64,000 bases of DNA from Roseibacillus sp. Its GTDB lineage: Bacteria; Verrucomicrobiota; Verrucomicrobiia; Verrucomicrobiales; Akkermansiaceae. A program made the translations under genes and the position numbers. This document shows, piece after piece, positions 30,995 through 51,518 of this stretch. The DNA lies in contig CBDEUM010000034.1 of assembly GCA_965242925.1 (NCBI GenBank), positions 64,001 to 128,000 on the forward strand, in the 5' to 3' direction. Every line of letters starts with the position of its first letter. Positions within the stretch are counted from its first letter, which is position 1. The notes beneath the pieces were generated by a model. That model saw only the letters and a list, made by a program, of their open reading frames with translations, was not told where the DNA came from and ran no database searches.

Positions 30995-33900
30995 CTAGCG
31001 CTCCTGCACCCGGAGCCGGAAGAAGAGGCGGGGCTCTCCAAAGGGAGGGCTGTGGATACCCCACTGCCGGGGTTCCCCGCCGAGGTAGTCGAAACCGTCT
31101 TCGTTCCAGTGGACAAGATCGGTGCTCCACTGGGGAATGATTTCCACACCATCGGCGCCCGGCATGAGGGACGCGGAGAGAGTCTTGGTGAGGACGTCAA
31201 GAATCACGGGGCCTGCCAGAGAGTAGGTCAGGAGATCACCGCCGTGGTAGGAAACGGTGTCCGTGCCACCCGGAGTTCCTCCGGGTGCGGTGCTGGCACG
31301 CCAGTTCTGCGGCAAGCCGTGATCGGGCGCTGATCCTGGCGCGATGAGAACAAGGCTCGGTCCTCCTCCATCTGTCCGGTCGGGCCAGGGAAGGTCGTTG
31401 TCGTAGGAGAAGGCCAGAATCTCGTCACCCTGGGAATCCGAGATTGCGACGAATTCGCCTCCATTGTTGAGCGCCCCTTCGAAGGTCCCTGCAATGGCTA
31501 CCCCGGGATGAGCTGCTGCGAAGGCAACGGGATCGTGTACGAGGACGGCCCGCTCTCCGGGGGCAAGGGTGTAACCGAGTGGAAAGGTGAAGGTGATCCC
31601 GTCGCTGAAGTGAACTCCGGTGAGGTCGAGGGTATCGACGGCGGAAATGTTCATGACCTCGATGAATTCGTCGGCGGTGTCAGTGATCGCCGGATTGTAC
31701 ATCAGTTCGCTCACTGCCAGGGTCGTGGCGCTGGGCGCCACCCCGACGATGAAGGTGGCCTCGTTAAGCGCCGACCACTCGGAACCGTCGAAGGCACGTG
31801 CCCGGATCTGGGTGGTCGCATTCAAGGGGAAGGAATCCTCCCCACTCAGGGTGGTGGCCTCGATTTCCGGAACAATGAGGAAGTCGGAACTTCCTGAGCT
31901 GACGTTGAGTCCGTGAATGGCGAGAAGGTTGCCGGCGGGTGAGAGCAGGTTCCTGTGCGCCGTGATGTCGATCTCTTCGAACTGAACCGCGAGGGAATCT
32001 GAGTGCGATCCGCCGGCTCCGGAGTCCCAGGCCGGAGCAGCAGTGGGCGGATTGCGGGAGGCGATCTGGACGCCGTTGAGATAGGCAATGAAGCCGTCGT
32101 CGTACTTCATGCGCAAGGTGAGGGTCAGGAGATCACCCGGATTGGCGCCCCCAAAGGGGATGCGCAGGTAGGCGGTCGGGTGCCTGGTGAACATCTCCGT
32201 GTGCAGATCGAGAGAGATCTCGTCCTGGTAGCCGCTGCTGTCCTCATATCCCACCCCGGTGGTTCCCGCGAGCCAGGTGGAATCATTGAAGGAGGGGGTG
32301 CGCCAGGTGGCGTCCACCGAACCATCGGCGGGCACGAGGGCGCGGACCGGAGCACCGGCGGCCAGCAGGGTCACCGCATTGGTTCCACTGGAGGCGCTGG
32401 AAGCGGCAGGATTGATGGCGCCTCCGGTCAGACGGGGATCGGAGCCGTCTGTCGTGTAGTGGACCGTAGAATCGGCTGCAAAGCGCACATTGAAGCCGGG
32501 CAGGACCACTCCTCCATGCTGGTTGAACTCGGGGGCATCGAGATCGGGATAGAGGTTGTGGCTGCGCATCTGGCTGAAGACCACGGCCTGCCGGCGAGGA
32601 AAGTAGGTGTTCGTCATCCTGGCGTTCTGCGCATCCCAGTGATCCTGCACGGTGCGGAGACCGGACCCCTTGGCGTCGCCCCAGCGGGCCGACTCGGCAA
32701 AAAGCGCGGGACGGGCGATTGCAGCCAGCTTGTTCCAGCGGGCGAGGTTGCTGACCACCGTCATGGCTCCGCCGTGGTGATAGTGTTTGTAGACGCGATC
32801 GGCAAAGCGCATGCGGTATTCGACATTGGCTCGGAGCGGGATTTCGATCTCGCCCGGCGATTCGGTCCACCAGTTGTGGCCCGGGGAGGTCTGCACCTTG
32901 TTGCCGCCGTTGGGATTTCCCCCCGCAAAGGGAATGTCGTTGTCCCAGGTGAAGAACTTAAAGCCATCGGTGCGTCCCCGAATCCGGTCACGGATGACGT
33001 AATAGTTGCCAGGCCAGTCGACCTGAGCGTGGTAGTGGCCGTTGATCACGTAGTCGATGAAGTTGTCGATGTCGATGAGGACGGGATAAGCCCGGTTGGG
33101 AGAGCCGTCCGGATTGTTGCCCTGAATACGCTGATAGTCCGCCGTGGTGCTGAGTCCTGCATTGGCCTCGCTGCGCAGTTGGTTCCACATCGTGATGGTC
33201 CCTGCGGTGGAACGATCCGGACAGCAGAACTTCACGACGTCGTATTGGCTCCTGTCTCCCCCGAGGTATGTTTCCGCGAACGAGTCGTCGGGCCGCTCGG
33301 TGGGATTGTAGAACCCCCAATAGATTCCGTTGAGGTAGACATGGGCGAAGATTCCCCGCACCGCCGGTTGACCCATGTCGAATTGCGCGCGCTTGCACCA
33401 CTCGTCACCTATGTAGAAGGCTGACCCGAAGCCCTGGTATTCCGTGAGCCAGGCATCACGGATGTTGCCCCGGAGGGCGATGGTGTTGAACTCGCCCGGC
33501 CCTTCGTCACCGAGAATGGGATACTGCATCCGGGCATCGCCATATTCCTTCTTGAAGAGAAGCCTCATGTTGAGTTTGGGCGTGGCATTGAGATTCCGGG
33601 ACGTGTAGCCCATGATACGCAGTCCAGCATTGGTCTGGTAGCGCCCCAGACCATCCTCCCCGATGATCTCCACTGAAACCGGCCGCTCCCACTGGGATCC
33701 GCGACCGGAGGGGTTGAGATAGATGCCGGATCCGGAATCAAAGAGATTGTCGCGATCGGTCACGATCGAAATGGTGGGAATAGACTCCAGGGAAGCGACA
33801 ATGGCGGCCCGGGCTTCGCGGGGGGTGAAGGAACGGTTACCTGCGGCCCGGGCATAATCGGTGGAATTCTGATCCATGGCGTAGTCCGCGGTGACACCCC

Positions 33901-35738
33901 AATTGGTGGGATAGCCGGCCGGATGACCCTGGGTGGCGACCGCATCGAGGAAGAGGTAGCTGTGGGTGTCGACATTGGTGGGATGGAAACCGGCCTTGAA
34001 GGCGGCCGCCCGCAAGACAGTGGTGGTGCGGATACTGACCGGCCCGGTGTAGACGCTCCCGTGCCTCTCGGTGGGAGTCGATCCGTCGGTGGTATAGCGG
34101 ATCGTTGCGCCCGAGGTGCTGGAAGTGATCACCACCGAAAACGGCGTGCGGTGAAATCCGCGGTCCACGCTGAAACTGGTGTCGGCCACAAAGCCGACGA
34201 CGCCGGTGGGGTCATTGGGAGCGCCCGGGGTGGGGGTGGTGAAGTATCGAGCCGAGGACACATCGTGACTGACTCCGGAAAGGCGCGGGGAGGCAACAAA
34301 ATCGGCGTCGCCCGCGAGCACGTTGAGACCCTGCACCGCCAGGACATTGCCAGTCGGCATGAGGGTGCCCGGAGGCAGGGCGACCTGGAACAGCTCGGCG
34401 CCGTTTCCTTCCGCAGTGGCGGCAGAATTCCAGGCGGGCACCCCCGGGGCATTGCGGTTGGCAATGGGCACGCCGTTGATCCAGGCGGCAAACCCGTCGT
34501 CGTAGCCCATTCCAAGTTGCAGGGTGTCGACCGCGGACGGATCAGCCACCTCAAAGGGAACGCGAACCACGATGCTGGAATTGTTGTTGAGCATGGAGGC
34601 TTCGACATCGGTCTCGATGTCATTGGCCGCATGGGGGCTGTATTTGAAGGTGCCCGCCGCGTATCGATTGGACGGACCACCGTCCTCGCTGGAGGGAAAA
34701 CTTCCGGCATCGCCAAAGCGCGAATTCCCCACGAACTGGATGAGGCTGCCACCCGTATCGATATCGAGTCCGTCAAGCGCGGAAACCCCCTGGTTTCCGT
34801 TCCTTTCACCCGAGCCGTAGCCGTAGGCCACCATGGTGTAGTCTCCCCGGCGCGAGGATGAGAGGCGCAACCAGTGGCTTGAAGCGGGTTCCTCCTTCCA
34901 GTGTTCCGGGATTGGCCCCGGTGAAGCTCTCGGTCGCGAGCACCGATCCTGCGTCGTCTCCACTGCGACTCCAGAGCTGGGCCGTGATGTTGCGGTTCAG
35001 TCCGTCGGAACCGTCATCAAAGACGCCCAAATCGGTAACCCGGACATCCTGGAGAGCCACGAAGTCCATTCCAAGCGACCCGCTGTAGGATTGGTTGCCC
35101 GGCACTCCCGCTTCCACCAGGTAAGCGGTATGGAATCCTGGCCCACCCCCGAGAACCGGTCCCGGCGAAGTGTTGTAGCCCACTGCCGCCCGGCCGGTGG
35201 TCCACGTGCCATCGTCGAAGCCAGGCTGAATCCAGTCGGGCGAAAGAGTGGCGGCGGGCACCCGGTAACGCGCGTTGGAGCCCGGCACCACCAGCGATTC
35301 CTGCTCAGTCAACAGCCCGTATCCCACATCTTCGCGTTGGGAGGGAACGATAGCATATTCGAAAGCCACCGAGTCATCAGGGCGCAGCAAGGTCAACGGC
35401 TCACCGGAAGCATCGAGTTTGAACGTGGTGTGCAGATGTCCTGCGCCATCGACATGATTCTCGATGGCCTGGCCGGAGGCGAAGACCACGAGATAGCCCC
35501 CGCCGGGAAGGAAAGTTCCCGCCGGAAAGCGCCAGGTTTCCATGTTGTCACGCAAGCCCCACCCAGCCAGAGCGACCTCGGCGGCGTCCGGATTGTGAAT
35601 TTCGATCCAGTCGGGATAGTTGCCGTCTCCGTCCGCGAGGATGCCGCTGTTGGACGCCATGAACTCCGAGATGACGGGTTCAGCCAGGAGGGAGGGGAGG
35701 GCGGCCCATGCAAGTGCTATGGCAATACGGGTGGTCAT
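30995..35738 (-). CDS. Lamin-tail / DUF4082-like / chitobiase-like Fn3 / CotH kinase-family giant (CotH giant 3, module B), one frameshift at 34845-34848
   Basis: ORF 34806-35738 (signal, LTD) and ORF 30995-34963 (CotH: GLRIMG, VYLNGIYWG, VDWPGNYY, FTWDND) join as LAPG-DYTMVAYGY if one G is removed from a G run. Confidence 0.85.
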
Positions 35739-38581: not shown

Positions 38582-39508
38582 AACCAGGTATGGCCGGACA
38601 ACGGCAGGGATTGGGTTCCTGTGATGGCATGACGATGGGAAACAATCACCGTTTGGCACCCACCGAGATGTCGCCCGCCGGAAAGGGCGCGGGTCTACGC
38701 CCTTCCTTTCCTCGACCTTGTATTTTCCCAGATATTCAAGGCTCAATTATCATCCGGCCCCTGGCACAGGCGGGAGGCCAATTTATCGAGCTGGAATTTC
38801 AGTTAACGGCAGTCCATTCCATTGCTCCTCGCTGGCACGCCAATCGACCTCTTCAAGGGCACGGCAAGTGCGGGAAAAACCCAAATTAGGGGTTGAACCA
38901 GCGCGACCTAACCCCTTTAATGGTGTCCAAGACCCATTAACTCATTGATGAAGACGCTCCTATCAGTCACCGCGGGGACTGCGCTCTTACTTACCAGCGC
39001 CCTCCAATCGCATGCCGCCATTGCCTACGGCATTGACGCCGGCACGGCTGGTACGCAAGCCTATAACGGAGCGCTCGGCAACGATTTTGACGTCGTCAGC
39101 ACGACCGGAATCTCGGTGACCCGCCTGGGCGTCTTTGATGACTCATCCGATGGTCTCAACTCCACGATTACGGTGGGAATTTTTGACCGGACCGACGGCT
39201 CTCTGGTTGGTTCCTCGATTGCATTCAGTGGTAACGATGGCTCGCTGGAAGGCGGGACCCGCTTCGCTACCCTGCTCTCACCCATCACTCTTCCAGCCGG
39301 ATTCCAAGGATCGGTCGTGGCCCAGGGCTATAATGCCGCTGAGCGAAACGGGAACGGCGGGACCGGATCCACGCCTGGAACGACCGACGACGGTGGCGGC
39401 GCCATCAGTTTTGTGGGTGGTTCGCGCTTTGGGCCAGGCGGGGTGTTTGCTTACCCCACCAGCGTCGATGGCGGGCCTGCTAACCGCTACCATGCCGGCA
39501 ACTTCGAC
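36367..39508 (+). repeat. Highly similar DNA shared by the large gene (36367-36874) and the PEP-CTERM gene (39001-39508)
   Basis: Same offset (2634) at both ends of about 508 bp; includes the end of the signal peptide (LQSHAAIAYGI). Confidence 0.88.
38857..38871 (+). promoter_or_regulatory. Possible sigma-54 (-24/-12) promoter upstream of the PEP-CTERM pair
   Basis: GGGCACGGCAAGTGC gives GG-N10-GC with GGCAC and TGC; imperfect match to TGGCAC-N5-TTGC. Confidence 0.35.
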
Positions 39509-39589
39509 TACGACGTCATTCCCGAGCCCTCCTCCCTGGCCCTTCTTCTTGGTGCCTTCGGATTCGTCGGCTTGCGTCGGCGTCGCTAA
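38948..39589 (+). CDS. PEP-CTERM protein with DUF4082-like domain (module B)
   Basis: Signal peptide; C-terminal IPEPSSLALLLGAFGFVGLRRRR. Confidence 0.92.
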   Translation: MKTLLSVTAGTALLLTSALQSHAAIAYGIDAGTAGTQAYNGALGNDFDVVSTTGISVTRLGVFDDSSDGLNSTITVGIFDRTDGSLVGSSIAFSGNDGSLEGGTRFATLLSPITLPAGFQGSVVAQGYNAAERNGNGGTGSTPGTTDDGGGAISFVGGSRFGPGGVFAYPTSVDGGPANRYHAGNFDYDVIPEPSSLALLLGAFGFVGLRRRR

Positions 39590-39625: not shown

Positions 39626-40255
39626 ATGAAACTCAACCTGGCCTTCTTCAGCTGCGCAGCGATTCTGCTCAGCGCATCATCCCAACTGAGTGCTGCCATC
39701 GCGCTCACCGTCCCCGCTGGAGCGACGTTCAATCAACACCACAATGGATTGCTGGGAATGGATTTCGATGTCACCGGGCCGGACGGGATCATCGTCTCAC
39801 GTCTGGGTGCCTTCGACTCGGGGCAGGATGGAATTCTCGGGACGATCAATGTGGGAATCGTGGACCGCACCACAGGGCTCGTGGTGGGAGAAACCCTTTC
39901 GTTCTCCGGGGACGCCGGCGACGTTGTGGACGGGAGCCGCTTTCTTAACCTCGCGACTCCTATCACGCTGGCCAATGGTTTTCAGGGCTCCATCACGGCG
40001 CAGGGCTACGGTCAGGAAGGCAACGGCAACGGGCAGGTCTCAACGATCGATGACGGCGGCGGTTTGATCAATTTTGTGGGAGGAGCTCGCTGGGGCGGAG
40101 ATGACCCCATCAGCCTGGCGCCGAATGCCGATGGCGGTCCGGCGAATCGCTACTTTGCCGGTACTTTTGATTATCGGGCAGTTCCGGAGCCGGGCTCCCT
40201 GGCCTTACTTCTTGGCGCGGTAGGGCTCTTGGGCCTTCGTCGTCGCCGGGCATAA
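39626..40255 (+). CDS. PEP-CTERM protein with DUF4082-like domain (module C)
   Basis: Signal peptide MKLNL..SSQLSA; C-terminal VPEPGSLALLLGAVGLLGLRRRRA. Confidence 0.92.
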   Translation: MKLNLAFFSCAAILLSASSQLSAAIALTVPAGATFNQHHNGLLGMDFDVTGPDGIIVSRLGAFDSGQDGILGTINVGIVDRTTGLVVGETLSFSGDAGDVVDGSRFLNLATPITLANGFQGSITAQGYGQEGNGNGQVSTIDDGGGLINFVGGARWGGDDPISLAPNADGGPANRYFAGTFDYRAVPEPGSLALLLGAVGLLGLRRRRA

Positions 40256-40391: not shown

Positions 40392-43034
40392 GTGAAACGG
40401 CGGGCGTCATTGAATGGGCAGGTGATCGCAGGGCAGCCGCCCCGGTTGCCACGTCCCGGGAGGCCTTCTCTGTTCCGGCAGGGGAAGCGTTCGTCCCCCG
40501 GACAATCTTCTCGTCTGCCGTCGAGAGATCCCGGAAGGGCGTGCGTTGTGGCCTTGTCCGCCGCGCTGCTCATGCTGGCGGGGTGCGGAGAAAAGGAGTC
40601 CGACCCATCCACCAAAGATTCCGAACAAGCTGATGCCGATCTCGCCGCTTCCCTGGTGGCCTCCGAAGAACTGATCCTCGCCCTGACCCCCCGCCTGAGG
40701 AAATTCGAGCCCAGCTTGTTCTCCTCCTCCAGCCTCTATTACGCACTGGAGAAGTCAGTTCACTCCGATACGCGCTACGCGAACTGGGGCGTAAGAAATA
40801 GAGAGTGGGCCACGCCCGCTTCGGCGCCGGCAGCCAACCCGCCGGCCCTCGACGACCTCGTGACTCCGCCGGAGGGAACGTTCCCGACCCTCTCCCGGCC
40901 TCGGTTGGCCATTGTGTCCGCACGTTTCCATGCCGCTCGGACTCAATTCCGAACGGAAATACAGTGTAGCGCCTCGGCCCCGGGAGTTTGGATTCGCTCC
41001 CGCCATACCGTTGCCTGGATCAAGAGCGGCCGTTCGCCTTCCGCGTGGCAGATCTCGGCCTGGCACCAGACCAGGCTCACCGTGTCACAAAGCCCCACCC
41101 CCCTCTTTGAGGAGGTCCTCGACAAGGCCGTTCCCGATCCGCAATCCTTGGCCGCGGCCCGCACCTCGCTGCACCAGAAAATCCTGGTGGATGGCTACTT
41201 TGGCGGAACCCGTCCCCCTCTTCCAAAAGGCTACAGCGACACCCGCTTCTTCGCGGACTCGACCAACATTCACCCCGCCCTCTCGGTGGTCGACGTCGAT
41301 GGCGACGGCCACGATGATCTCTACGTCTGCGTCCGCTGGGGCAGAAACCTGCTCCTCCGCAATAGGGGCGATGGCACGTTTGAGGAGTGCGCTGCCCGCT
41401 ACGGGCTCGACATCGACGGACGAAACACAGTGGCCCTTTTTGCCGATTTCGATAACGATGGCGATCCCGATCTGTTGCTCGGCCGCAGCCTGGAACGAAG
41501 CCTCTTTCTGGTGAATGTGGGGGGACGCTTTGAGCCTCATCCCGAGCCGGTTTCGAACGGTTCTCTGCCCTGGTTGGTCACCTCTGCCTCTGCCGCCGAT
41601 TTCAACAATGATGGTCTGTTGGATCTCTATATTTGCACTTACAGTCCGCTTGACATCAGTTCCCGGACCTCCGGGTTGCCGGACCGGAGCAGCCTGGAGT
41701 GGGCCCGGCGCTTCCTTCCCGCTGAGCAAGCCGCCGAAGTCGTCCGCCGGCGGGCTGGCGCCCACAGCTATCTCTCTCAGGTGGGCCCTCCCAACGTTCT
41801 CCTCCTGGGACGAGGAACGCACTTTGAGATCGCACCGGATGCCGCAACGCTCCTCGGCTACCGCAACAGCTTCCATGCGGCCTGGAGTGATTTCGATCAG
41901 GATGGCGACCAGGATCTCTACGTCGCCAACGACTTCGCTCCCGATCACTTCTTTCGAAACGAAGGGGCCGAGGGATTCAGCGAGGTTGCCAGAGAGATCG
42001 GGCTTGACGGCCTGGGCTTTGCGATGGGGGCGGCCTGGGGTGACTATGACGGCGATGGGTGGGACGATGTCTATGTCTCCAACATGTACTCGAAGGCGGG
42101 CCGCCGCATCACCGGCCGAATCCCCGGACTCGACCGCCGATTCTCCGCCATCTCGGGCGGCAACTTCCTCTACCGCAATCGCGGAGATGGAACCCTGGAG
42201 CGGGTTTCGGGAGCCGACGACAAACCCGTCCCCGTCCACGACGCCGGCTGGTCGTGGGGTGGACAATTCTGCGATTTCGATAACGACGGACACCTCGACC
42301 TTTATGTTTCCAGCGGCTTCTACACGCCTCCACCGGGGGAGGATATCGGAGTCGATTTGTGAAGTTGCCTTTGGCGCTCGGTCGTGCGCTCCGACAGTTC
42401 CCTGCCTCCGGATTTTCGCGCCGAAAAGACTTGGACGACCGATCCCAATACCGGGGCCCACGCGCCTGCCCTCAATCGAACGGATTTCTACAATGGTCCG
42501 GATTACCACCGGCATTCCTACAGCGGTTACGAGCACAACAAATTTTATCTGAATGTCGGCGGGAAGACCTTTTCAGACCTCTCTGGAGTCTCCGGGGTCG
42601 ACAACATCGCGGACGGTCGAAGCTGGTGTGCTCTCGACTACGACCAGGACGGCTGGACCGATATCGCGCTGGTCAACTCGAATCACCCCCTGCTGAATCT
42701 CTACCGAAATCGGATGGGCGAGCGGTCCAAGAACAATCATCTCAAAATTCGCCTGCTCGGCGGGGCGCGAGCTGGCGAGCGGTCCATGGCATGGAGCAAT
42801 CGTGACGCGGTGGGCGCCGTGGTAGAAATCACGACCGGCTCTCGCACGCTGCGGCGCGTTCGCCAACTGGGAGAAGGCTATGCCGCCCAGAACAGCGCCA
42901 CCCTGACGATCGGGATTGGTGAGGCGCTCGCTGCGGAATCACTTCGGGTCACCTGGCCTTCGGGGAAGACCACCAAGATCATGACCCCGATCCCGGCAGG
43001 AGTGGTTCTCACCCTCAAGGAACGTCCGGACTAA
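40392..43034 (+). CDS. FG-GAP + ASPIC/UnbV (CRTAC1-like) lipoprotein with an in-frame TGA at 42360-42362 (candidate selenoprotein), module C
   Basis: Lipobox LMLAG-C; FG-GAP repeats; ORF 40392-42362 and ORF 42384-43034 are in the same frame, separated only by TGA (GVDL*SCLWRSVV). The downstream part completes the propeller and the UnbV domain. Start uncertain. Confidence 0.8.
42363..42399 (+). promoter_or_regulatory. Candidate bacterial SECIS hairpin
   Basis: GGCGC-U-C-[GGUC]-G-U-GCGCU at 42373-42390; apical loop begins 18 nt after UGA; weak lower stem 42363-67/42395-99. Confidence 0.5.
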
Positions 43035-43149: not shown

Positions 43150-46100
43150 ATGAAACTCAATCTGCCGTTGATCAGCTGCGCAGCGATTTTGCTCAGCGCA
43201 TCATCCCAACTGAGTGCTACCATCGCACTCACCGTCCCTGCTGGAGCGACGTTCAATCAACACCACAATGGATTGCTTGGAATGGATTTCGATGTCAACG
43301 GGCCGGACGGGATTATCGTCACACGTCTGGGCGCCTTCGACTCGGGACAGGATGGCATTCTCGGGACGATCATTGTAGGAATCGTGGACCGCGCCACCGG
43401 AAACGTGGTGGGAGAAACCCTTTCGTTCTCCGGGGACGCCGGCGACGTTGTGGACGGGAGCCGCTTTCTCGCCCTCACCACGCCCCTGGTATTACCCAAT
43501 GGTTTTCAGGGTTCCATCACCGCGCAGGGCTACGGTCAGGAAGGCAACGGCAACGGGCAGGTCTCAACGATCGATGACGGCGACGGCTTGATCACGTTCG
43601 TGGGAGGAGCCCGCTGGGGCGGAGATGACCCCCTGACCCTGGCGACGAATGCTGATGGCGGCCCGGCCAATCGCTACTTTGCCGGCACCTTTGAATTCCT
43701 GAGCGAGGATCTGAGCGAGGACACCGATGGGGATGGGTTGCCCAATGCCTGGGAAGAGACCTTCGGCTTGAATCCCAGTGATCCTGACGATGCCGATGAT
43801 GACGGCGACGGCGATGGTCTGAACAACACGGAGGAGTTTGAGAACAACACCGATCCCACCGAGCGGGACACAGATGGTGATGACCTGACCGATGGTGAAG
43901 AGGTCAACACTGCCATGACCGATCCAACCAAGAGGGATAGCGACGGCGATGGCCTGTGGGACAGCGTTGAAACCAATACTCGCTCCTTTACGAGTTGGAC
44001 CGGTGATTTGGAAGATCCAGACGTTCCCCAAACAGGGGACACCGGATCCGATCCCAATGATACCAATACCGACGATGACGGGTTTTCAGACGGCGCGGAA
44101 GTCGCCGCGGGCTTTGACCCGAATGATCCGAACAGCGGTCCGCCGTCATCCCAACTGAGTGCTGCCATCGCACTCACCGTCCCCGCTGGAGCGACGTTCA
44201 ATCAACACCACAATGGATTGCTGGGAATGGATTTCGATGTCACCGGGCCGGACGGGATCATCGTCACACGTCTGGGCGCCTTCGACTCGGGGCAGGATGG
44301 AATTCTCGGGACGATCAATGTAGGAATCGTGGACCGCGCCACCGGAAACGTGGTGGGAGAAACCCTTTCGTTCTCCGGGGACGCCGGCGACGTTGTGGAC
44401 GGCAGCCGCTTTCTCGCCCTCACCACGCCCCTCATATTACCCAATGGTTTTCAGGGTTCCATCACGGCGCAGGGCTACGGTCAGGAAGGCAACGGCAACG
44501 GGCAGGTCTCAACGATCGATGACGGCAATGGCTTGATCACGTTCGTGGGAGGAGCTCGCTGGGGCGGAGATGACCCCCTGACCCTGGCGCCGAATGCTGA
44601 TGGCGGCCCGGCGAATCGCTATTTTGCCGGCACCTTTGAATTCCTGAGCGAGGACACCGATGGGGATGGGTTGCCTGATGCCTGGGAAGAGACCTTCGGC
44701 TTGAATCCCAGTGATCCTGACGATGCCGATGATGACGGCGACGGCGATGGTCTGAACAACACGGAGGAGTTTGAGAACAACACCGATCCCACCGAGCGGG
44801 ACACGGATGGTGATGACCTGACCGATGGTGAAGAGGTCAACACTGCCATGACCGATCCAACCAGGAGGGATAGCGACGGCGATGGCCTGTGGGACAGCGT
44901 TGAAACCAATACTCGCTCCTTCACGAGTTGGACCGGTGATTTGGAAGATCCAGATGTTCCCCAAACAGGGGATACCGGATCCGATCCCAATGATACCAAT
45001 ACCGACGATGACGGGTTTTCAGACGGCGAGGAGGTCGCGGCAGGCTTTGACCCGAATGATCCGGACAGCGGTCCGTCGCTCTCCTTCCAAGGCATGCTGG
45101 CGATCGACTACCTGGAGCCAGGAGTCGGAACGCAGGAATTTGCGGAAGGACTGGGACACGACTTCCTCGTGATCGGCGAGGCGATCGAAGTCACCGCGCT
45201 TGGCGTATTCGACAGTGGGGCGGATGGTCTCAACCGGGAGCTCACCTCCGAGCTCTGGGTGCGGGACGACAACAACTTGGGGACGTCGTTGCTGGCATCC
45301 CTCTCCTTCGTCCCGGGGGCACCCGGGCTGCTGCACCATTCGAACCGGATCAAATCTCTCCCCATCCCACTCGTCCTCGAGCCGGGCGCCTACACAATTG
45401 TCGGTCGGGGCTATGGGGCGGGTGAGCCGAACGGGAATACCGGTGGTCCTGGATCAGACCTCAAGCCCATCAATGATGGAGGCGGACGGATCGAGTTCGT
45501 GGGCGGTGCCCGTTGGGGGGGCGGTGGGATTGGTGGCGCCGTTGGATTCCCACAAAATGTTGATGGCGGACCGCCGGTGCGCTATGCGGCGGGGACCTTT
45601 GCCTTCCGGACTGAGCCGCCGCCTAAATTGTTCTGGCGAATTTCCTCGAGCGGGGACGATCTCATCTTCGAGTGGGAGAGCAGATTAGGGAAGGTCTACG
45701 ACATCTTAAGCAACGACGATCTCTCCGATCACCCGGCAGCAGGCTGGCCCCTCTTCCGCGGAGACATTGCCGGGACCCCTCCCTTGAATGTCGAGACCTC
45801 CCTTCGCCCCCCCGACGAAAAACGCTACTTCGTGCTGGTCGAGAGGGACGGTCCGCCTCTTTTCGAAGATGATTTTGAGACTGACAAAGGGTGGACCGCG
45901 ATCGTGAACGATGCCAACGGCAATACCAACTGGGAGCGCGGCACCCCCGGCGGCAGCACTGGACCGCTCACCGGCGCCGATGGCTCCGCCAATGCCTGGT
46001 CCACCAACCAGGGAGACTACGGACCGGATTCCGACATCGCCCTGCGCTCGCCGCTTATTGATTTGACCGGTATTCCGACCGCCGAATTGTCCCTCGACGC

Positions 46101-46353
46101 CTTCAGGGACGCCGATGGCTTCGCCGACACCGCCTCGGTGCGCTTTCTGGACGCAACCGGCCTCACCCAGTTGGGGTTCGAGCACCCCATCGACATGACT
46201 GTCTTCGACGGTGACTGGACCAACCTGGTCATCCCGGTGGCACCAGAAGCCCTCGGGGAGAGCATCATCATCGAAATCAATTTTATCAGCGACAACAGCG
46301 AGGACACCTTCAGCGGGCTCTCCATTGACAACGTCAGCGTGAGTGCCGAGTAG
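43150..46353 (+). CDS. Large secreted protein: (DUF4082-like + TSP3-like repeats) x2, third DUF4082-like domain, shared C-terminal region (module C)
   Basis: Signal peptide almost identical to that of 39626; internal tandem duplication; C-terminus highly similar to that of 36302. Confidence 0.9.
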   Translation: MKLNLPLISCAAILLSASSQLSATIALTVPAGATFNQHHNGLLGMDFDVNGPDGIIVTRLGAFDSGQDGILGTIIVGIVDRATGNVVGETLSFSGDAGDVVDGSRFLALTTPLVLPNGFQGSITAQGYGQEGNGNGQVSTIDDGDGLITFVGGARWGGDDPLTLATNADGGPANRYFAGTFEFLSEDLSEDTDGDGLPNAWEETFGLNPSDPDDADDDGDGDGLNNTEEFENNTDPTERDTDGDDLTDGEEVNTAMTDPTKRDSDGDGLWDSVETNTRSFTSWTGDLEDPDVPQTGDTGSDPNDTNTDDDGFSDGAEVAAGFDPNDPNSGPPSSQLSAAIALTVPAGATFNQHHNGLLGMDFDVTGPDGIIVTRLGAFDSGQDGILGTINVGIVDRATGNVVGETLSFSGDAGDVVDGSRFLALTTPLILPNGFQGSITAQGYGQEGNGNGQVSTIDDGNGLITFVGGARWGGDDPLTLAPNADGGPANRYFAGTFEFLSEDTDGDGLPDAWEETFGLNPSDPDDADDDGDGDGLNNTEEFENNTDPTERDTDGDDLTDGEEVNTAMTDPTRRDSDGDGLWDSVETNTRSFTSWTGDLEDPDVPQTGDTGSDPNDTNTDDDGFSDGEEVAAGFDPNDPDSGPSLSFQGMLAIDYLEPGVGTQEFAEGLGHDFLVIGEAIEVTALGVFDSGADGLNRELTSELWVRDDNNLGTSLLASLSFVPGAPGLLHHSNRIKSLPIPLVLEPGAYTIVGRGYGAGEPNGNTGGPGSDLKPINDGGGRIEFVGGARWGGGGIGGAVGFPQNVDGGPPVRYAAGTFAFRTEPPPKLFWRISSSGDDLIFEWESRLGKVYDILSNDDLSDHPAAGWPLFRGDIAGTPPLNVETSLRPPDEKRYFVLVERDGPPLFEDDFETDKGWTAIVNDANGNTNWERGTPGGSTGPLTGADGSANAWSTNQGDYGPDSDIALRSPLIDLTGIPTAELSLDAFRDADGFADTASVRFLDATGLTQLGFEHPIDMTVFDGDWTNLVIPVAPEALGESIIIEINFISDNSEDTFSGLSIDNVSVSAE
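43201..45078 (+). repeat. Intragenic tandem duplication: 43201-44145 (945 bp) and 44146-45078 (933 bp)
   Basis: Both copies begin TCATCCCAACTGAGTGCT. They differ by scattered substitutions and a 12-bp LSED duplication in copy 1. Confidence 0.92.
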
Positions 46354-46478
46354 ATCTCGACTGACCAAATAATCAACAAACCTTGCCAGGCGGTGAAGTC
46401 CACAGGCATTCACAAGTTTGCCGTGCGGTGTCTGTTGGAATTTTCGGGAAAGCAGTCTATGCTTCCCCGGTCCCCCTG

Positions 46479-49400
46479 ATGCACCCTCCCTTCCGTCTGC
46501 TCTTCTGTCGAGTCCCCCAATTGGTGGCGACCCGAATGGTGGCTTGCCTGCTATTCGGAACAGCACCGCTTTTGGCCAATCCCTTCATCTCCGAGTTTAT
46601 GGCGGACAATGGCTCCACCCTGGCCGATGAGGACGGCGAGTTTCCGGACTGGATCGAGATTACCAACAGCGGAACGGAGCCGGTCGATCTCGCCGGCTGG
46701 CACCTCACCGACGACGAGACCAAGCCCACCAAGTGGACGTTCCCCGGTCCCGCCTCACTGGCAGGAGGGCAGTCGCTGGTCGTCTTCGCGTCGGGCAAGA
46801 ACCGCCACCGACCTGGCAGACCCCTCCACACCAACTTCGCTCTCAATCAAAGCGGAGAGTTCCTGGCCCTGGTGGCCCCGGATGGCGCCACGCTGGCAAG
46901 CCGCTTCTCGCCCTACCCCCCCCAGGAACTCGACCTCTCCTACGGAGTGGGACTGGGTCCCGCGGCTGTGACCACTCTCCTGATTGAGGACGACTCCCAG
47001 GCCCTCCTGCTGGTTCCCTCCGGCCCGGTTGACGACTCCTGGCGGGGCGGAGAACCCTTCAATGAAAACTCCTGGACCCCCGTGCAACTGGGCGTGGGCT
47101 TCAACACCGGGGGTGGCGCGGTGATCGGTGGGGGAGGGGGGGAAACCACCATCGCCTACGGCGTGGCGGATGGGACCTCCGGCACGCAGGTATTCGGGGG
47201 AGGACTGGGGATGGACTTCGCCGTCCTCGAGTCAATCTCGGTGAAAAAGCTCGGTGTCTTCGATGACGATTCGGACGGACTGAACCGCACCATTACGGCC
47301 GAGCTTTGGTCGCGGGACGGCAACGGTAGCGGCATCGTGCTGGCCAGCGAAACCTTCACTTCCGGCAACCCCGGAACCCTCGAAGCGGGTCATCGCTTCA
47401 AGTCCCTTTCCTCCCCGCTCACGCTGGAACCGGGCCCCTACACCATCGTGGCCCACGGCTACGGAGGTGATGAACGCAATGGCAACTCGGGCGGCAACGG
47501 GGACTTTGCCACCTCGAACGACGGAGGGGGCCTGATCCAGTTCGTGGGCTCCAGCCGCTTCGGCTCTGCGGGCGGGGCCTGGCCGGATAGCGAGGACGGG
47601 GGCGGACCGGCCCGCTACGGGGCAGGCACCTTCACCTTTGCGGCCGTCGGCGACAGCCTGATTCGGACCGATCTGGAATCCGGGATGCATGGCCAGAACG
47701 CCTCCGCTCTGTTGCGGATCCCCTTTTCCTACGCCGGACCGGAACTTGCTACCACTCTCACTCTTGAGATCGCCTACGACGATGGATTCACCGCCTGGCT
47801 CAACGGCCAGCTACTCACTTCGCGCAATGCCTCCACCGATCCCGCTTGGAACAATGTCGCCAGCGCTGCAGGGAATGCGGTGGAGACCATCGTGCTGCCC
47901 TCGACCGCCTTGACGATTGGCGACAACGTTCTCGCCGTCCAGGGAATGAACCTGCATGGAGACGATCCGGACTTCATGGTTGCTCCCCAACTCTCCGCCG
48001 CTTTCTCCCGCTTCGAACGTCTCTACTTCTCCAATCCAACCCCCGGCCAACCCAACGGCCAGGGCGAGCAAGGCACCGGGATCGTGATCAACGAAATCCA
48101 CTACGACCCCTCTTCAGACACCGCACCGGCCGAGTTCCTCGAACTCTACAACGCGGGAGCGCGCACGGTGAATCTCACCGGATGGCGCCTGACCGGGGCG
48201 GTGGACTACACCTTCCCGGCCAACACCGGACTGGCCCCTGACCGCTACCTCGTGGTGGCTCTGAATGCGCCCTTCTTCGAGGCGGAGTTCAGCGGGGTTC
48301 CGGTTCACGCGCCCTTCCTGGGCCGGCTCAGCAACAACGGGGAAACCGTGGAGCTGCGCAACAACCTCGATGAAGCCATCGACAGGGTGAATTACGCCGT
48401 GGGCGCACCCTGGCCCGTGGCGGGCAACGATCCCTATCCCTCGATCCAACTGCTCCATCCCGGGCAGGACAATGATTTGGCGGGCAGTTGGCGAGCCGCT
48501 CCACCTACGCCGGGAGCACTCAACGCCGTCTTCTCAGTCGATACTCCACCACAGGTGCGCCAGGTCAATCACCTGCCTCTCGCCCCCGCCAGCGGGGAAG
48601 AAGTGGTGGTCAGCTGTAAGGTCACTGATCCCGATGGGGTGGCCTCGGTCACGCTGGAATACCAGACCGTGCTGCCGGGGCGCTACCTTCGCCTCAGCGA
48701 CGCTACCTTTGAGACAAGCTGGGATAGGCTGCCGATGTCACTCCTTCCCACTGGCCAGAGCACCTATCAGGCGACCCTGCCCGCCGACCTCCAGCGCCAC
48801 CGTCAACTTATTCGCTACCGCATCGTGGCTGAAGATTCCTTCGGGGCAACCGTGAGGCTTCCGCTGCCCAGCGACCCCTCCGTCAACTTTGCCTACTTCG
48901 TCTACAATGGCGTCCCGGGTTGGCGGGGAGCCATCATTCCGGGCGAAACTCCCGTTCTCGATTTCAGTGCGGAGGCAATGAACCACCTTCCGACCTACCA
49001 TCTCATCGCGAATGCTGAGGACGTGAGCGCGTCCCAGTACAACCGCTCCTTCAACGACAAGGTCTACCGCTTCGAAGGGGCCCTGGTCTACGACGGTGTA
49101 GTTTATGACCACATGCGCTACCGTGTTCGCGGTCATGGCTCGACCTACAACACCGGAAAGAACAAGTGGAAGCTGCGTTTCAATCGCGGACACCTCTTCC
49201 AGGGACGCGACGACTACGGGCGCCCCTACCGGGAAAAGGTGCGAACCCTGAACTGGAGCGCTCTCTCCAGCCCCTGGAACCCCGCCAATCGCGGAGCAGC
49301 TGGATTGGATGAAGCGCTGGCCTTCCGGCTCTGGCGCATGGCCGGCATCCCTGCTGCCAACACCAACTATTTCCATCTTCGTATCATCGACGGCGCGCGG

Positions 49401-51518
49401 GAGACGAACCGGGGAAATCAGTTCGAAGGCGACAACTGGGGTCTCTATCTCGCCCTTGAGCAAACGGACCGCCGTTTTCTCGACGAGCGCGGGTTACCCG
49501 ATGGGAATACCTTCAATATGCACTTTGGCTCGAGCAACATCGTCAATCAGGCTTACCGCCAGCCGTCCAACCGCAGCGACCTCTTCACATTCAACGGAGC
49601 CAGCTCCCGGGGATACAATCGAGCTAATCCGGTGCAACCGGTGGCCTGGTGGAATCGCACGGTGGACCTGGAAAGCTACTTTTCCTATCGGGCGATTCTG
49701 GAAGCGGTCAATCACTCCGACCTGCGCGACAAGGAAAACTCCATCCTTTACCACGACCCCACCAAACGGCGGTGGACCATGATCCCGTGGGACGTTGACC
49801 TGCTCTACGAAGAGTTCGATCGCTGGGGGCCAAACGCGGTGCAAAGCCCCGCCACCCTCGAGCAATTCCGCAAGGCGCTCACTCATCCCGAGATCAACAT
49901 CCGCTTTCAAAACCGCGCCCGGGAGTTGCAGGACCTTCTCCTCAATAGCGACCAGGGATGGACTCTCGTCGACGAATTGGCCAGCGTTCTGGGCAGCTCC
50001 GACGGCAATCTCGGCATGGCGGAATTGGACGCTGCCCGTTGGAATGGAGATCCGCAGACAAGACGGGTCGAGGGATCGAGTCCCAATCCGAAAGCCTACT
50101 TCTTCATGAACCCCTACACCTCGACGCGCTTCCCCGCCAAGAGGCGCACCCTCATTTCCGGAGACTTCCCGGGCATGGTGGACTGGGTGAAAAAGTTCAT
50201 TGTGCCACGGGGCTTTGGCGGGGGGCGACTCCGCGACATGACGCGGGATTCCCGCATTCCGGAGACACCAGTCATCTCCTACACCGGATCGAACGGCTTC
50301 CCGGCGGTTGGGTTGCGACTCAGGAGCAACGCCTTTGCACCTGGAAACGGGGGCGCGTCATTCGCGGCCATGGAATGGCGCATCGGTGAGGTCCGTCATC
50401 CGGACGTGCCTGGTTTCGAGGAAGGAGAACCGTGGCGCTATGAGATCGAGGCCACCTGGAGCTCGGGCGAATTAAATGTCTTTCAAGACGAGATCGCGGT
50501 GCCCGCTGTCGCGGTGCAAGTCGGTCGCCTCTATCGAGGCCGGGTGAGACACCGGGGTGACGACGGGCGCTGGAGTCATTGGTCCGCCCCCCTGGAATTC
50601 ACGACCGCGAATCCCGATCTCCAACCCTACCTGACGGGTCTCGTAATCAGCGAGGTGATGTATAATCCCGCCGATGATAATCAGGAACTCGAGTTCATTG
50701 AAGTGCGAAACGTGGGGCCGTCCACCCTTGATCTCTCAGACGTGCGCTTCAGCAACGGGATTGAGTTCTCCTTTGCGGCCTCGAGCATCACAAGTCTGGC
50801 GGCTGGCAGCAGGGCCCTGGTAGTGCGCAACGAGGCCGTCTTCGAAGCGCATTACGGTGCCAATCTGCCCGTGGCAGGCGAATATCGCCTCTCCGCCTCC
50901 AACAATCTGAGTAATGCCGGGGAACGCGTGACGCTCTCCCTGGGCGCAGACAGCATTATCCGGGATTTCAGCTATCGCGACAACCGACCCTGGCCAAGCG
51001 GTGCCGACGGCACGGGCTACTCGCTGGTCCTGAGGGCACCCGAATCCCTCCCCGATCACAGCCTCGCCGTCAACTGGCGCAGCAGCGCCCTGCCCGACGG
51101 TAATCCTGGCAGCTCCGATGCCCTTCCTGAGTTCACCGGCGATCCCCACCGGGACGACGATCAAGATGGCCTGATGGCTCTCCTGGAACACGCCCTGGGT
51201 GGCGATCCCGCCACCGCCGAGTCCGAATTGGTTCCTGCCGCTTCCGTCATGAACCTCGAAGTGGAGGGCACCTTTGACAATTACCTCACCATCAGTGCCC
51301 GGCGGATGTTGGGGGCCGACGACGTGACCCTCATCGCGCAGATCAGCGGGAACCTCGTCGACTGGTCGAGCGCTCCGGAGCGCGTGGTCCTGGTGAGCGA
51401 GGTCCCGAATGCAGATGGCACTTCGATCATGACCTGGCGCAGCGCCCGTCCTATGGCGGAGGCTCCCCAGGAGTTTCTGCGAATTGAAGCTTCCATTCAG
51501 CGGATCCCACTCAGGTAG
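46479..51518 (+). CDS. Lamin-tail / DUF4082-like / CotH kinase-family giant (CotH giant 4, module C)
   Basis: LTD (ISEFMADN..DWIEI), DUF4082-like insert, further LTDs, CotH (RVRGHGS, KNKWKLRF, NHSDL..N, IPWDVD). Start 46479 or 46536. Confidence 0.9.
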   Translation: MHPPFRLLFCRVPQLVATRMVACLLFGTAPLLANPFISEFMADNGSTLADEDGEFPDWIEITNSGTEPVDLAGWHLTDDETKPTKWTFPGPASLAGGQSLVVFASGKNRHRPGRPLHTNFALNQSGEFLALVAPDGATLASRFSPYPPQELDLSYGVGLGPAAVTTLLIEDDSQALLLVPSGPVDDSWRGGEPFNENSWTPVQLGVGFNTGGGAVIGGGGGETTIAYGVADGTSGTQVFGGGLGMDFAVLESISVKKLGVFDDDSDGLNRTITAELWSRDGNGSGIVLASETFTSGNPGTLEAGHRFKSLSSPLTLEPGPYTIVAHGYGGDERNGNSGGNGDFATSNDGGGLIQFVGSSRFGSAGGAWPDSEDGGGPARYGAGTFTFAAVGDSLIRTDLESGMHGQNASALLRIPFSYAGPELATTLTLEIAYDDGFTAWLNGQLLTSRNASTDPAWNNVASAAGNAVETIVLPSTALTIGDNVLAVQGMNLHGDDPDFMVAPQLSAAFSRFERLYFSNPTPGQPNGQGEQGTGIVINEIHYDPSSDTAPAEFLELYNAGARTVNLTGWRLTGAVDYTFPANTGLAPDRYLVVALNAPFFEAEFSGVPVHAPFLGRLSNNGETVELRNNLDEAIDRVNYAVGAPWPVAGNDPYPSIQLLHPGQDNDLAGSWRAAPPTPGALNAVFSVDTPPQVRQVNHLPLAPASGEEVVVSCKVTDPDGVASVTLEYQTVLPGRYLRLSDATFETSWDRLPMSLLPTGQSTYQATLPADLQRHRQLIRYRIVAEDSFGATVRLPLPSDPSVNFAYFVYNGVPGWRGAIIPGETPVLDFSAEAMNHLPTYHLIANAEDVSASQYNRSFNDKVYRFEGALVYDGVVYDHMRYRVRGHGSTYNTGKNKWKLRFNRGHLFQGRDDYGRPYREKVRTLNWSALSSPWNPANRGAAGLDEALAFRLWRMAGIPAANTNYFHLRIIDGARETNRGNQFEGDNWGLYLALEQTDRRFLDERGLPDGNTFNMHFGSSNIVNQAYRQPSNRSDLFTFNGASSRGYNRANPVQPVAWWNRTVDLESYFSYRAILEAVNHSDLRDKENSILYHDPTKRRWTMIPWDVDLLYEEFDRWGPNAVQSPATLEQFRKALTHPEINIRFQNRARELQDLLLNSDQGWTLVDELASVLGSSDGNLGMAELDAARWNGDPQTRRVEGSSPNPKAYFFMNPYTSTRFPAKRRTLISGDFPGMVDWVKKFIVPRGFGGGRLRDMTRDSRIPETPVISYTGSNGFPAVGLRLRSNAFAPGNGGASFAAMEWRIGEVRHPDVPGFEEGEPWRYEIEATWSSGELNVFQDEIAVPAVAVQVGRLYRGRVRHRGDDGRWSHWSAPLEFTTANPDLQPYLTGLVISEVMYNPADDNQELEFIEVRNVGPSTLDLSDVRFSNGIEFSFAASSITSLAAGSRALVVRNEAVFEAHYGANLPVAGEYRLSASNNLSNAGERVTLSLGADSIIRDFSYRDNRPWPSGADGTGYSLVLRAPESLPDHSLAVNWRSSALPDGNPGSSDALPEFTGDPHRDDDQDGLMALLEHALGGDPATAESELVPAASVMNLEVEGTFDNYLTISARRMLGADDVTLIAQISGNLVDWSSAPERVVLVSEVPNADGTSIMTWRSARPMAEAPQEFLRIEASIQRIPLR

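Follow-up and report, generated by a model that had tools for sequence, protein, structure and literature searches.

The decoding of UGA as selenocysteine (Sec) through SelB and a selenocysteine insertion sequence (SECIS) is textbook knowledge, and the GGUC apical loop of such elements has a role in SelB binding. We describe a gene that resembles Escherichia coli fdhF in its layout: an in-frame UGA is followed, inside the open reading frame (ORF), by a hairpin with a GGUC apical loop, and the genome encodes SelB-type machinery. The gene lies on the forward strand of a 64,000-nucleotide stretch from Roseibacillus sp. (assembly GCA_965242925.1, contig CBDEUM010000034.1, positions 64,001 to 128,000), which we call the window. 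Our reading, to which we assign a probability of roughly 85%, is that one exported CRTAC1/ASPIC-UnbV lipoprotein gene runs from 40392, or from a later start, to 43034 and that its UGA, codon 657, is read as Sec by means of a SECIS. In mechanistic terms, SelB and tRNA-Sec would decode the UGA at 42360-42362 under the direction of the fdhF-like hairpin within the ORF.

The family is barely documented as a selenoprotein. S9 Table of Kim et al. (2016, PLoS One; PMC4807772) holds four candidate selenoprotein genes with the same domain set and an in-frame UGA, each annotated as two genes; their closest database match has a non-Cys residue (G), and bSECISearch was positive for three of the four. We liken these genes to ours by their table description, with the same TGA column assumed rather than aligned (PMC4807772). 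They stand as four table rows without analysis, and the available part of the main text never mentions ASPIC or FG-GAP (PMC4807772). Besides this study, a literature search linking selenoproteins to FG-GAP, ASPIC, UnbV, or CRTAC1 found nothing. The family is absent from the main text of the BSepDB 2026 paper as far as that text was available, its family table not being covered (PMC13326102), and the accessible main texts of two selenoprotein reviews do not mention it (PMC9312934, PMC13188914). A first-pass annotation of the window had proposed a new selenoprotein family; the four earlier candidates qualify that novelty, and the family is otherwise undescribed in the literature searched.

The window sequence and its read-through translation place the TGA at 42360-42362 in frame within one gene of 881 codons. 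The ORF list gives its two parts separately, in the same frame, as 40392..42362 (656 amino acids) and 42384..43034 (216 amino acids). The first-pass annotation had reported a single TGA in a frame of about 880 codons, had held that the downstream part is needed to complete the protein, and had proposed Sec insertion; our analysis bears out the first two points and supports the third. The read-through context is ...GEDIGVDL-U-SCLWRSVVRSD.... FG-GAP and FG-GAP_3 repeats, the blades of a beta-propeller, occupy approximately residues 301-641 (41292..42314) by Pfam and by the strands of an AlphaFold2 model; the Pfam matches are FG-GAP_3 (E 2.1e-42, 144 bits, five stretches) and FG-GAP (E 4.8e-25, 87.4 bits), both above cut-off. 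The UnbV_ASPIC domain (residues 806-870, 42807..43001; E 3.6e-14, 52.8 bits against a cut-off of 23.4) lies wholly 3' of the UGA. Since the repeats lie before the TGA and UnbV_ASPIC after it, the downstream part is needed for the full domain set. The assignment of residue 657, counted from the GTG at 40392, as Sec draws on comparative evidence: a conserved TGA column, a SECIS signal, Sec machinery, and an independent contig.

The TGA occupies one column across a wide range of homologs. We searched 61 related genomes in six frames with the read-through protein; 31 of them gave matches, with exactly one TGA each among the matches listed, and 69 further matches lie beyond those listed. When the codon aligned to residue 657 was read by tblastn in the first 30 loci and in the whole of the window's own genome (51 high-scoring segment pairs, HSPs), TGA stood at the exact column in 43. 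Of the other eight HSPs, one does not reach the column, two have gaps, and five have other codons, all of these being weak matches (E of 2.8e-8 or worse). Among 78 named public-genome loci, the column is TGA in 33 HSPs, AAC or AAT (Asn) in 14, and GAA or GAG (Glu) in seven; there are also Leu codons in five distant matches, single other codons in three, and gaps in 23. The TGA loci come from metagenome-assembled genomes of Verrucomicrobiota (Akkermansiaceae, Roseibacillus, Rubritalea) and from others labelled Planctomycetota (Mariniblastus, Pirellulaceae), Acidobacteriota, Gemmatimonadetes, Myxococcota, Gammaproteobacteria, Deltaproteobacteria, and Cytophagia. With duplicates removed, 72 distinct TGA sites have 51 nucleotides of downstream sequence, at identities down to 30%, and 13 of these sites are in the window's own genome.

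Seen in isolation, a long ORF with a single stop would pass for a broken gene, and some paralogs in the same genome are indeed truncated or degraded (C37:732-2858, C12:49642-52248, C17, and C30:151498-154332). The first of these is a near-copy of C28:2531-6451 that keeps the TGA and the first 10 following codons and then loses the frame, with 53 residues after Sec compared with 651 in C28; it is either a degraded duplicate or an assembly artefact. For the window gene, a recent nonsense mutation, a pseudogene, or a sequencing or assembly error has next to no probability: the comparative data, with an identical column at 72 sites across phyla, already refute it. The TGA is also present in a 431-nucleotide contig matching 42330-42760, which belongs to a marine metagenome from another study and has five differences elsewhere. 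Because that contig comes from another study, the TGA is not a sequencing error, a doubt that the first-pass annotation had left standing. A further metagenome run, identical to the whole stretch, is possibly the source.

Selection acts on both sides of the codon. Ratios of nonsynonymous to synonymous substitution (dN/dS, Nei-Gojobori, 223 codons) after the TGA are 0.149, 0.151, and 0.152 against the orthologs L012, L014, and L013, and 0.377 against a fourth ortholog, L015; before the TGA (360 codons) they range from 0.044 to 0.175. These ratios indicate purifying selection on the part that follows the UGA, where values near 0.15 are not those of a pseudogene. The codon directly after the TGA preserves Ser by way of AGT, AGC, and TCG. 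Comparison of the homologs thus marks the TGA as an inherited selenocysteine codon, not damage.

The hairpin is the second feature that sets this site apart. Its stem pairs 42374-42379 with 42384-42389 around the loop GGUC at 42380-42383, all inside the ORF. The first-pass annotation had noted a hairpin with a GGUC loop starting 18 nucleotides after the UGA. The hairpin is present, with one correction: it is the loop that begins 18 nucleotides after the UGA, and the stem starts 11-12 nucleotides after it. The loop therefore takes positions 21-24 counted from the U. In E. coli fdhF, GGUC has the place that the annotation gave it, at 22-25 from the U, which is one base farther. The window copy has a U.U mismatch at pair 19-26 (42378/42385).

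Across the 72 TGA sites, counted from the T of TGA, G22 is present in all 72 and T23 in 70; the loop positions that are synonymous third positions, G21 and C24, are kept in 65 and 64. The Asn-type genes also encode Val there and have C24 in one of 14, and the Glu-type genes have ATG at that codon in seven of seven. Covariation was assessed in two sets, a near group of 47 sequences and a distant group of 24, and compensatory changes were found in both. The near group has a 6-bp stem and a 4-nucleotide loop, with 92.4% of cells paired and five of the six pairs changed on both sides; none of 500 shuffles reaches any of these measures. The distant group has a 7-bp stem around GGUCG, with 89.3% paired. 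Pair 18-28 of the distant group shows six pair types and joins the synonymous third base of an Arg codon with the first base of a Ser, Ala, Thr, or Pro codon. On these alignments, codon, frame, and hairpin are demonstrably inherited in a large multi-phylum family with at least 13 copies in the window's own genome.

A near-invariant GTG follows the TGA at positions 25-27 (66, 67, and 68 of 72 for the three bases), and it allows a different account: the UGA could be a true stop in a conserved split gene, with the C-terminal part made by re-initiation at the GUG at 42384, eight codons on, and the two pieces assembling afterwards. Public gene calls begin at this codon or nearby, and N-terminal fragments ending at the TGA are on record. 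We consider this highly improbable. Both parts are in one frame in every case seen, which re-initiation would not need, and the codons between UGA and GUG are conserved as amino acids, with Ser encoded by AGY as well as TCG. A Trp and an Arg there are invariant and common to the Glu-type proteins, where the stretch is certainly translated. The GUG itself lies in the 3' arm of the hairpin, which accounts for its conservation. In addition, the feature tracks the Sec machinery, and loop sequence and spacing match those of fdhF.

The gene calls are better described as an annotation problem: gene callers split the family into two ORFs. In a search of representatives at 50% identity (22,372 matches, the best 150 examined), 71 of 149 representatives are shorter than 480 amino acids. 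Many of the listed ones are C-terminal halves that begin eight to nine codons after the TGA, with matches starting at query residue 106-107, and N-terminal halves that end at the TGA were found as well. The splitting spans marine and soil phyla: Verrucomicrobiota, Planctomycetota, Acidobacteriota, Gemmatimonadota, Myxococcota, and others. Protein catalogues would accordingly hold thousands of false halves and selenoproteome counts would be too low, with about 13 selenoproteins to be gained in this genome.

The machinery for Sec insertion is largely in place. ARAGORN finds one tRNA-Sec (C30:304340-304433) among the 46 tRNAs of the genome. SelB scores 287.5 bits (cut-off 242.25) at C34:143868-145079, on the same contig, approximately 16 kb past the end of the window. 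SelD scores 366.6 bits, above cut-off, and has one in-frame TGA (G000:C14:573853-574776, L001); it is probably a Sec-containing selenophosphate synthetase. These 3 components answer to the suggestion that the genome should encode the Sec pathway, and SelA is the part that does not: searches of the assembly (89.87% complete) with PF03841 and TIGR00474 did not find it, and it is found in 18 of 19 other genomes of the genus. We searched 41 genomes for both the family and SelA. The family is carried by 23 of them, and 21 of these have SelA; the two carriers without a detected SelA are the window's own genome and one that is 70% complete. Among the 16 SelA-negative genomes, only those two carry the family.

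The missing SelA leaves room for another kind of read-through, in which a near-cognate or suppressor tRNA reads the UGA as a standard amino acid (Trp, Cys, Arg, or Gly), the hairpin merely aids, and selenium plays no part. Sec is, after all, inferred from sequence, and non-Sec homologs have many residues at the column (E, N, S, D, A, Q, T, and one C). Even so, we regard this as very unlikely. The genome has tRNA-Sec, SelB, and SelD, and its congeners have SelA; a GGUC apical loop at the fdhF distance is an element of the SelB-binding type; and exactly one UGA per gene, at one column, speaks against a change of code.

What replaces Sec in other members of the family is unusual. Among the 120 closest full-length database proteins, the column holds Glu in 116, Asp in two, and Ser and Val in one each. 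Among the best 150 of the 22,372 representative matches, the true column is filled in 15 full-length proteins: Glu in six, Ser in four, and Cys, Thr, Ala, Gln, and Asp in one each; one further protein is gapped. The top of that search also holds P0136, P0137, P0139, and others, of 3000-4800 amino acids and with 28-43 matched stretches: these are giant FG-GAP repeat proteins that match by their repeats, not by the Sec region. The Cys form is P0146, with its cluster mate P0286, both from metagenome assemblies (DYDL[C]NEYWR). The first-pass annotation had looked to homologs that keep TGA or Cys at this column; they exist, as 72 TGA sites and, rarely, as this Cys homolog. A classical Sec/Cys pair thus exists, if rarely, and was found in one cluster. 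A word-based search around the site for a Cys form returned none, and gave only N-terminal fragments ending at the TGA.

The tree is consistent with Sec as the older state. It was built with FastTree from 89 rows with the site and the next two residues masked, and was midpoint-rooted for drawing only. The Glu forms make up one clade (seven rows, support 100) several supported branches deep within the Sec forms, and the Asn forms make up one clade (12 rows, support 100) whose sister is a Sec clade of 21 rows. Two switches of residue type would suffice for this pattern, with Sec as the simplest ancestral state; a root within the Glu clade would overturn this for the Glu forms, and for the Asn forms the position of the root decides. 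We also considered the Glu-type genes as a consequence of lost Sec machinery and rejected the idea: all five of the five genomes that hold Glu-type genes have SelA.

The domain composition of the paralogs suggests what Sec might do. In most paralogs of the same genome, UnbV_ASPIC is followed by an AhpC-TSA/Redoxin domain with a WCxxC motif and then by TPR repeats; the window gene and C13:146029-148494 are without the thioredoxin-like domain. We aligned 63 long forms: of the 45 with Sec, 43 retain an intact CxxC and two have CxxS instead. In those two (L034 and G000:C22:98095-101703) the motif reads CPVS, with the first Cys kept and the second lost. By comparison, CxxC is intact in three of six Glu forms and in none of 12 Asn forms, of which eight have the second Cys only, one has neither, and three have a deletion. 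The Cys-type cluster retains CxxC, and it is absent from long Glu, Asp, Ala, and Gln representatives. The co-occurrence of Sec with an intact thioredoxin CxxC (43/45), and the loss of CxxC in most Glu and Asn forms, are new here.

Short forms offer a second candidate partner. The first-pass annotation had noted a Cys two residues after the Sec (UxC). The window copy does have it, encoded by the TGC at 42366..42368, and we propose it as the resolving thiol of this short form; the motif is not family-wide and is confined to short forms. Among Sec forms, the residue at +2 can be C, N, D, S, F, V, M, I, A, E, Q, or L. Cys is found there in 15 of 23 short forms, a count that leaves out L040, at a contig end, and in none of the 45 long forms; in these 15, Sec is followed by 201-236 residues. 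The restriction of Cys at +2 to forms without the thioredoxin-like domain is also new here. It arose at least four times on the tree, and the window's own clade (L011-L015) has a long WCAPC form as its sister. No separate thioredoxin gene stands beside the short forms in the available flanks of L017, L069, L022, L023, and L025. A short U-S-C gene often adjoins a long-form paralog, as in L071 (sites 2270 and 4867) and L111 (sites 3471 and 5202), and paired short and long matches also occur at G008:C50, G002:C27, G003:C66, G009:C183, and G049:C57. Adjacent short U-S-C forms and thioredoxin-bearing long forms may work as a pair; the window gene has no long-form neighbor.

We infer that Sec is a redox-active residue of these proteins. 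In most paralogs, it would act with the CxxC of the fused C-terminal TlpA/AhpC-like thioredoxin domain. In the short form of the window, where the domain has been lost, the Cys two residues on (U-S-C) would probably resolve, forming a selenylsulfide. The account that the sequences best support is a redox relay in which the partner of Sec is the thioredoxin domain or the Cys at +2, and we offer it as such rather than as demonstrated fact. More tentatively, and with the odds somewhat against us, we propose that Sec is the ancestral catalytic residue of an unrecognized extracytoplasmic redox class built on a CRTAC1/integrin-like propeller. Recycling of the Sec would fall to a fused TlpA-like thioredoxin domain and, in short forms, to a vicinal Cys (U-x-C). 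Where Sec was lost, lineages would have taken Glu or Asn instead of Cys, let CxxC decay, and changed function. If this is true, at least 13 copies in one genome would place the family among the most duplicated bacterial selenoprotein families, and the question would be raised of the chemistry from which the animal CRTAC1 fold descends.

Several observations weigh against these proposals. Some concern Sec itself: the case for it at residue 657 is made by sequence evidence throughout, SelA is missing from the assembly, and the non-Sec homologs mostly have Glu (116/120) or Asn, which is unusual at a Sec position, with Cys in just one of the 15 full-length representatives that have a residue at the column. 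Others concern the hairpin. On its own, the window copy folds no better than chance: 42360-42400 has a minimum free energy of -9.2 kcal/mol (z = +0.74), and 153 of 200 shuffles fold as well or better. An Rfam scan of 42300-42480 at E up to 10 gave no SECIS family and only a chance match to leuA-Halobacteria. The significance of the hairpin thus comes from the comparison of homologs and not from its own folding energy. Within that comparison, partners slid by two columns still pair in approximately 70% of cells in the near group, and the stem is partly a by-product of coding W-R-T-x-V-R. Four of the seven Glu-type genes fold a comparable stem, with the loop CAUG or GAUG; because they do so with other loops, it is the loop that sets the TGA genes apart.

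The remaining points bear on the redox role. Three of four long Ser-type representatives keep CxxC, contrary to a strict redox coupling. The link between Sec and CxxC reflects few independent events, since the Glu forms and the Asn forms contribute a single clade each. When the association between Cys at +2 and the short form was tested on independent pairs, there were four of them and the result did not reach significance (sign test, p 0.5). Eight short Sec forms are without both the Cys at +2 and the thioredoxin domain.

Other features of the gene point to an exported lipoprotein. The start codon is ambiguous between 40392 and 40548, with alternatives on the forward strand at GTG 40392, TTG 40410, GTG 40422, TTG 40446, and GTG 40548. 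A putative lipobox, L-A-G-C (40575..40586), was read by eye after the hydrophobic stretch VVALSAALLM, under the pattern [LVI][ASTVI][GAS]C for bacterial lipoproteins; its Cys codon (40584-40586) would encode the lipidated first residue of the mature protein. Lipobox-like motifs are also found in paralogs (LLSAC, MMGC, APGC, and LVGC). NCBIfam has no family for the protein, with one sub-threshold match to XAC2610, and its close database relatives, where named, are called "CRTAC1 family protein." The AlphaFold2 model of the protein has a mean pLDDT (predicted local distance difference test) of 76.6 and a pTM (predicted template modeling score) of 0.82. In this model, residue 657 opens a helix (657-666), in a region of moderate confidence; the N-terminus of a helix is the usual site for a nucleophilic Cys or Sec.

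The best fold match in Foldseek is murine CRTAC1 (9etn_A; E 2.9e-25, template modeling score 0.70 on the target). Lower-ranked matches are other propellers, including aldos-2-ulose dehydratase, PL11 lyases, fungal lectins, and integrins. By sequence, 9etn is the sole structure matched (E 4.1e-11), across the FG-GAP and UnbV parts.

The neighbors of the gene encode secreted or surface proteins and give no clue to its function: two PEP-CTERM proteins, a TSP3-repeat protein, giants with CotH and Lamin Tail Domains (LTD), and a sulfatase. Directly 5' of the selenoprotein gene, on the same strand, two small tandem proteins end in PEP-CTERM sorting motifs (38945-39589 and 39626-40255, +). Downstream lies a secreted protein of 1067 amino acids with a long internal duplication (43150-46353, +): a block from ...ATIALTVPAGATFNQHHNGLLGMDFDV... 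followed by bacterial TSP3 repeats is present twice in near-identical form. Its Pfam matches are TSP3_bac and a sub-threshold binary-toxin calcium-binding domain. Two giants, of 1322 and 1711 amino acids, combine a CotH kinase domain with LTDs (30995-34963, -; 46383-51518, +), and there is an LTD protein of 310 amino acids at 34806-35738. Pieces from the RNA library X15 are 95-97% alike, and none spans the gene, so they permit no conclusion on its transcription; one such piece at the site continues into another paralog.

In fdhF, the hairpin serves a cytoplasmic molybdoenzyme, whereas here it lies in the gene of an exported FG-GAP propeller lipoprotein; our hairpin has a short stem of 6-7 bp, and there is no common Cys-type homolog. 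The family is exported and expanded by duplication, and its Sec column aligns far more often with Glu or Asn than with Cys. It shares its fold with mammalian CRTAC1 (9etn), with a weak sequence match. It differs from CRTAC1 in sequence (16% identity) and in having a putative lipobox, which CRTAC1 is without; we know of no Sec in CRTAC1. The co-retention of Sec and CxxC provides a concrete redox hypothesis for the whole family, animal CRTAC1 included. The paralogs resemble thioredoxin-fold selenoproteins and TlpA-like periplasmic oxidoreductases in retaining an AhpC-TSA/Redoxin domain with WCxxC alongside Sec. Unlike in thioredoxin-fold selenoproteins, Sec here belongs to the propeller region, outside the thioredoxin fold and outside any CxxU or UxxC motif, and the window copy, unlike the TlpA-like oxidoreductases, is without any thioredoxin domain.

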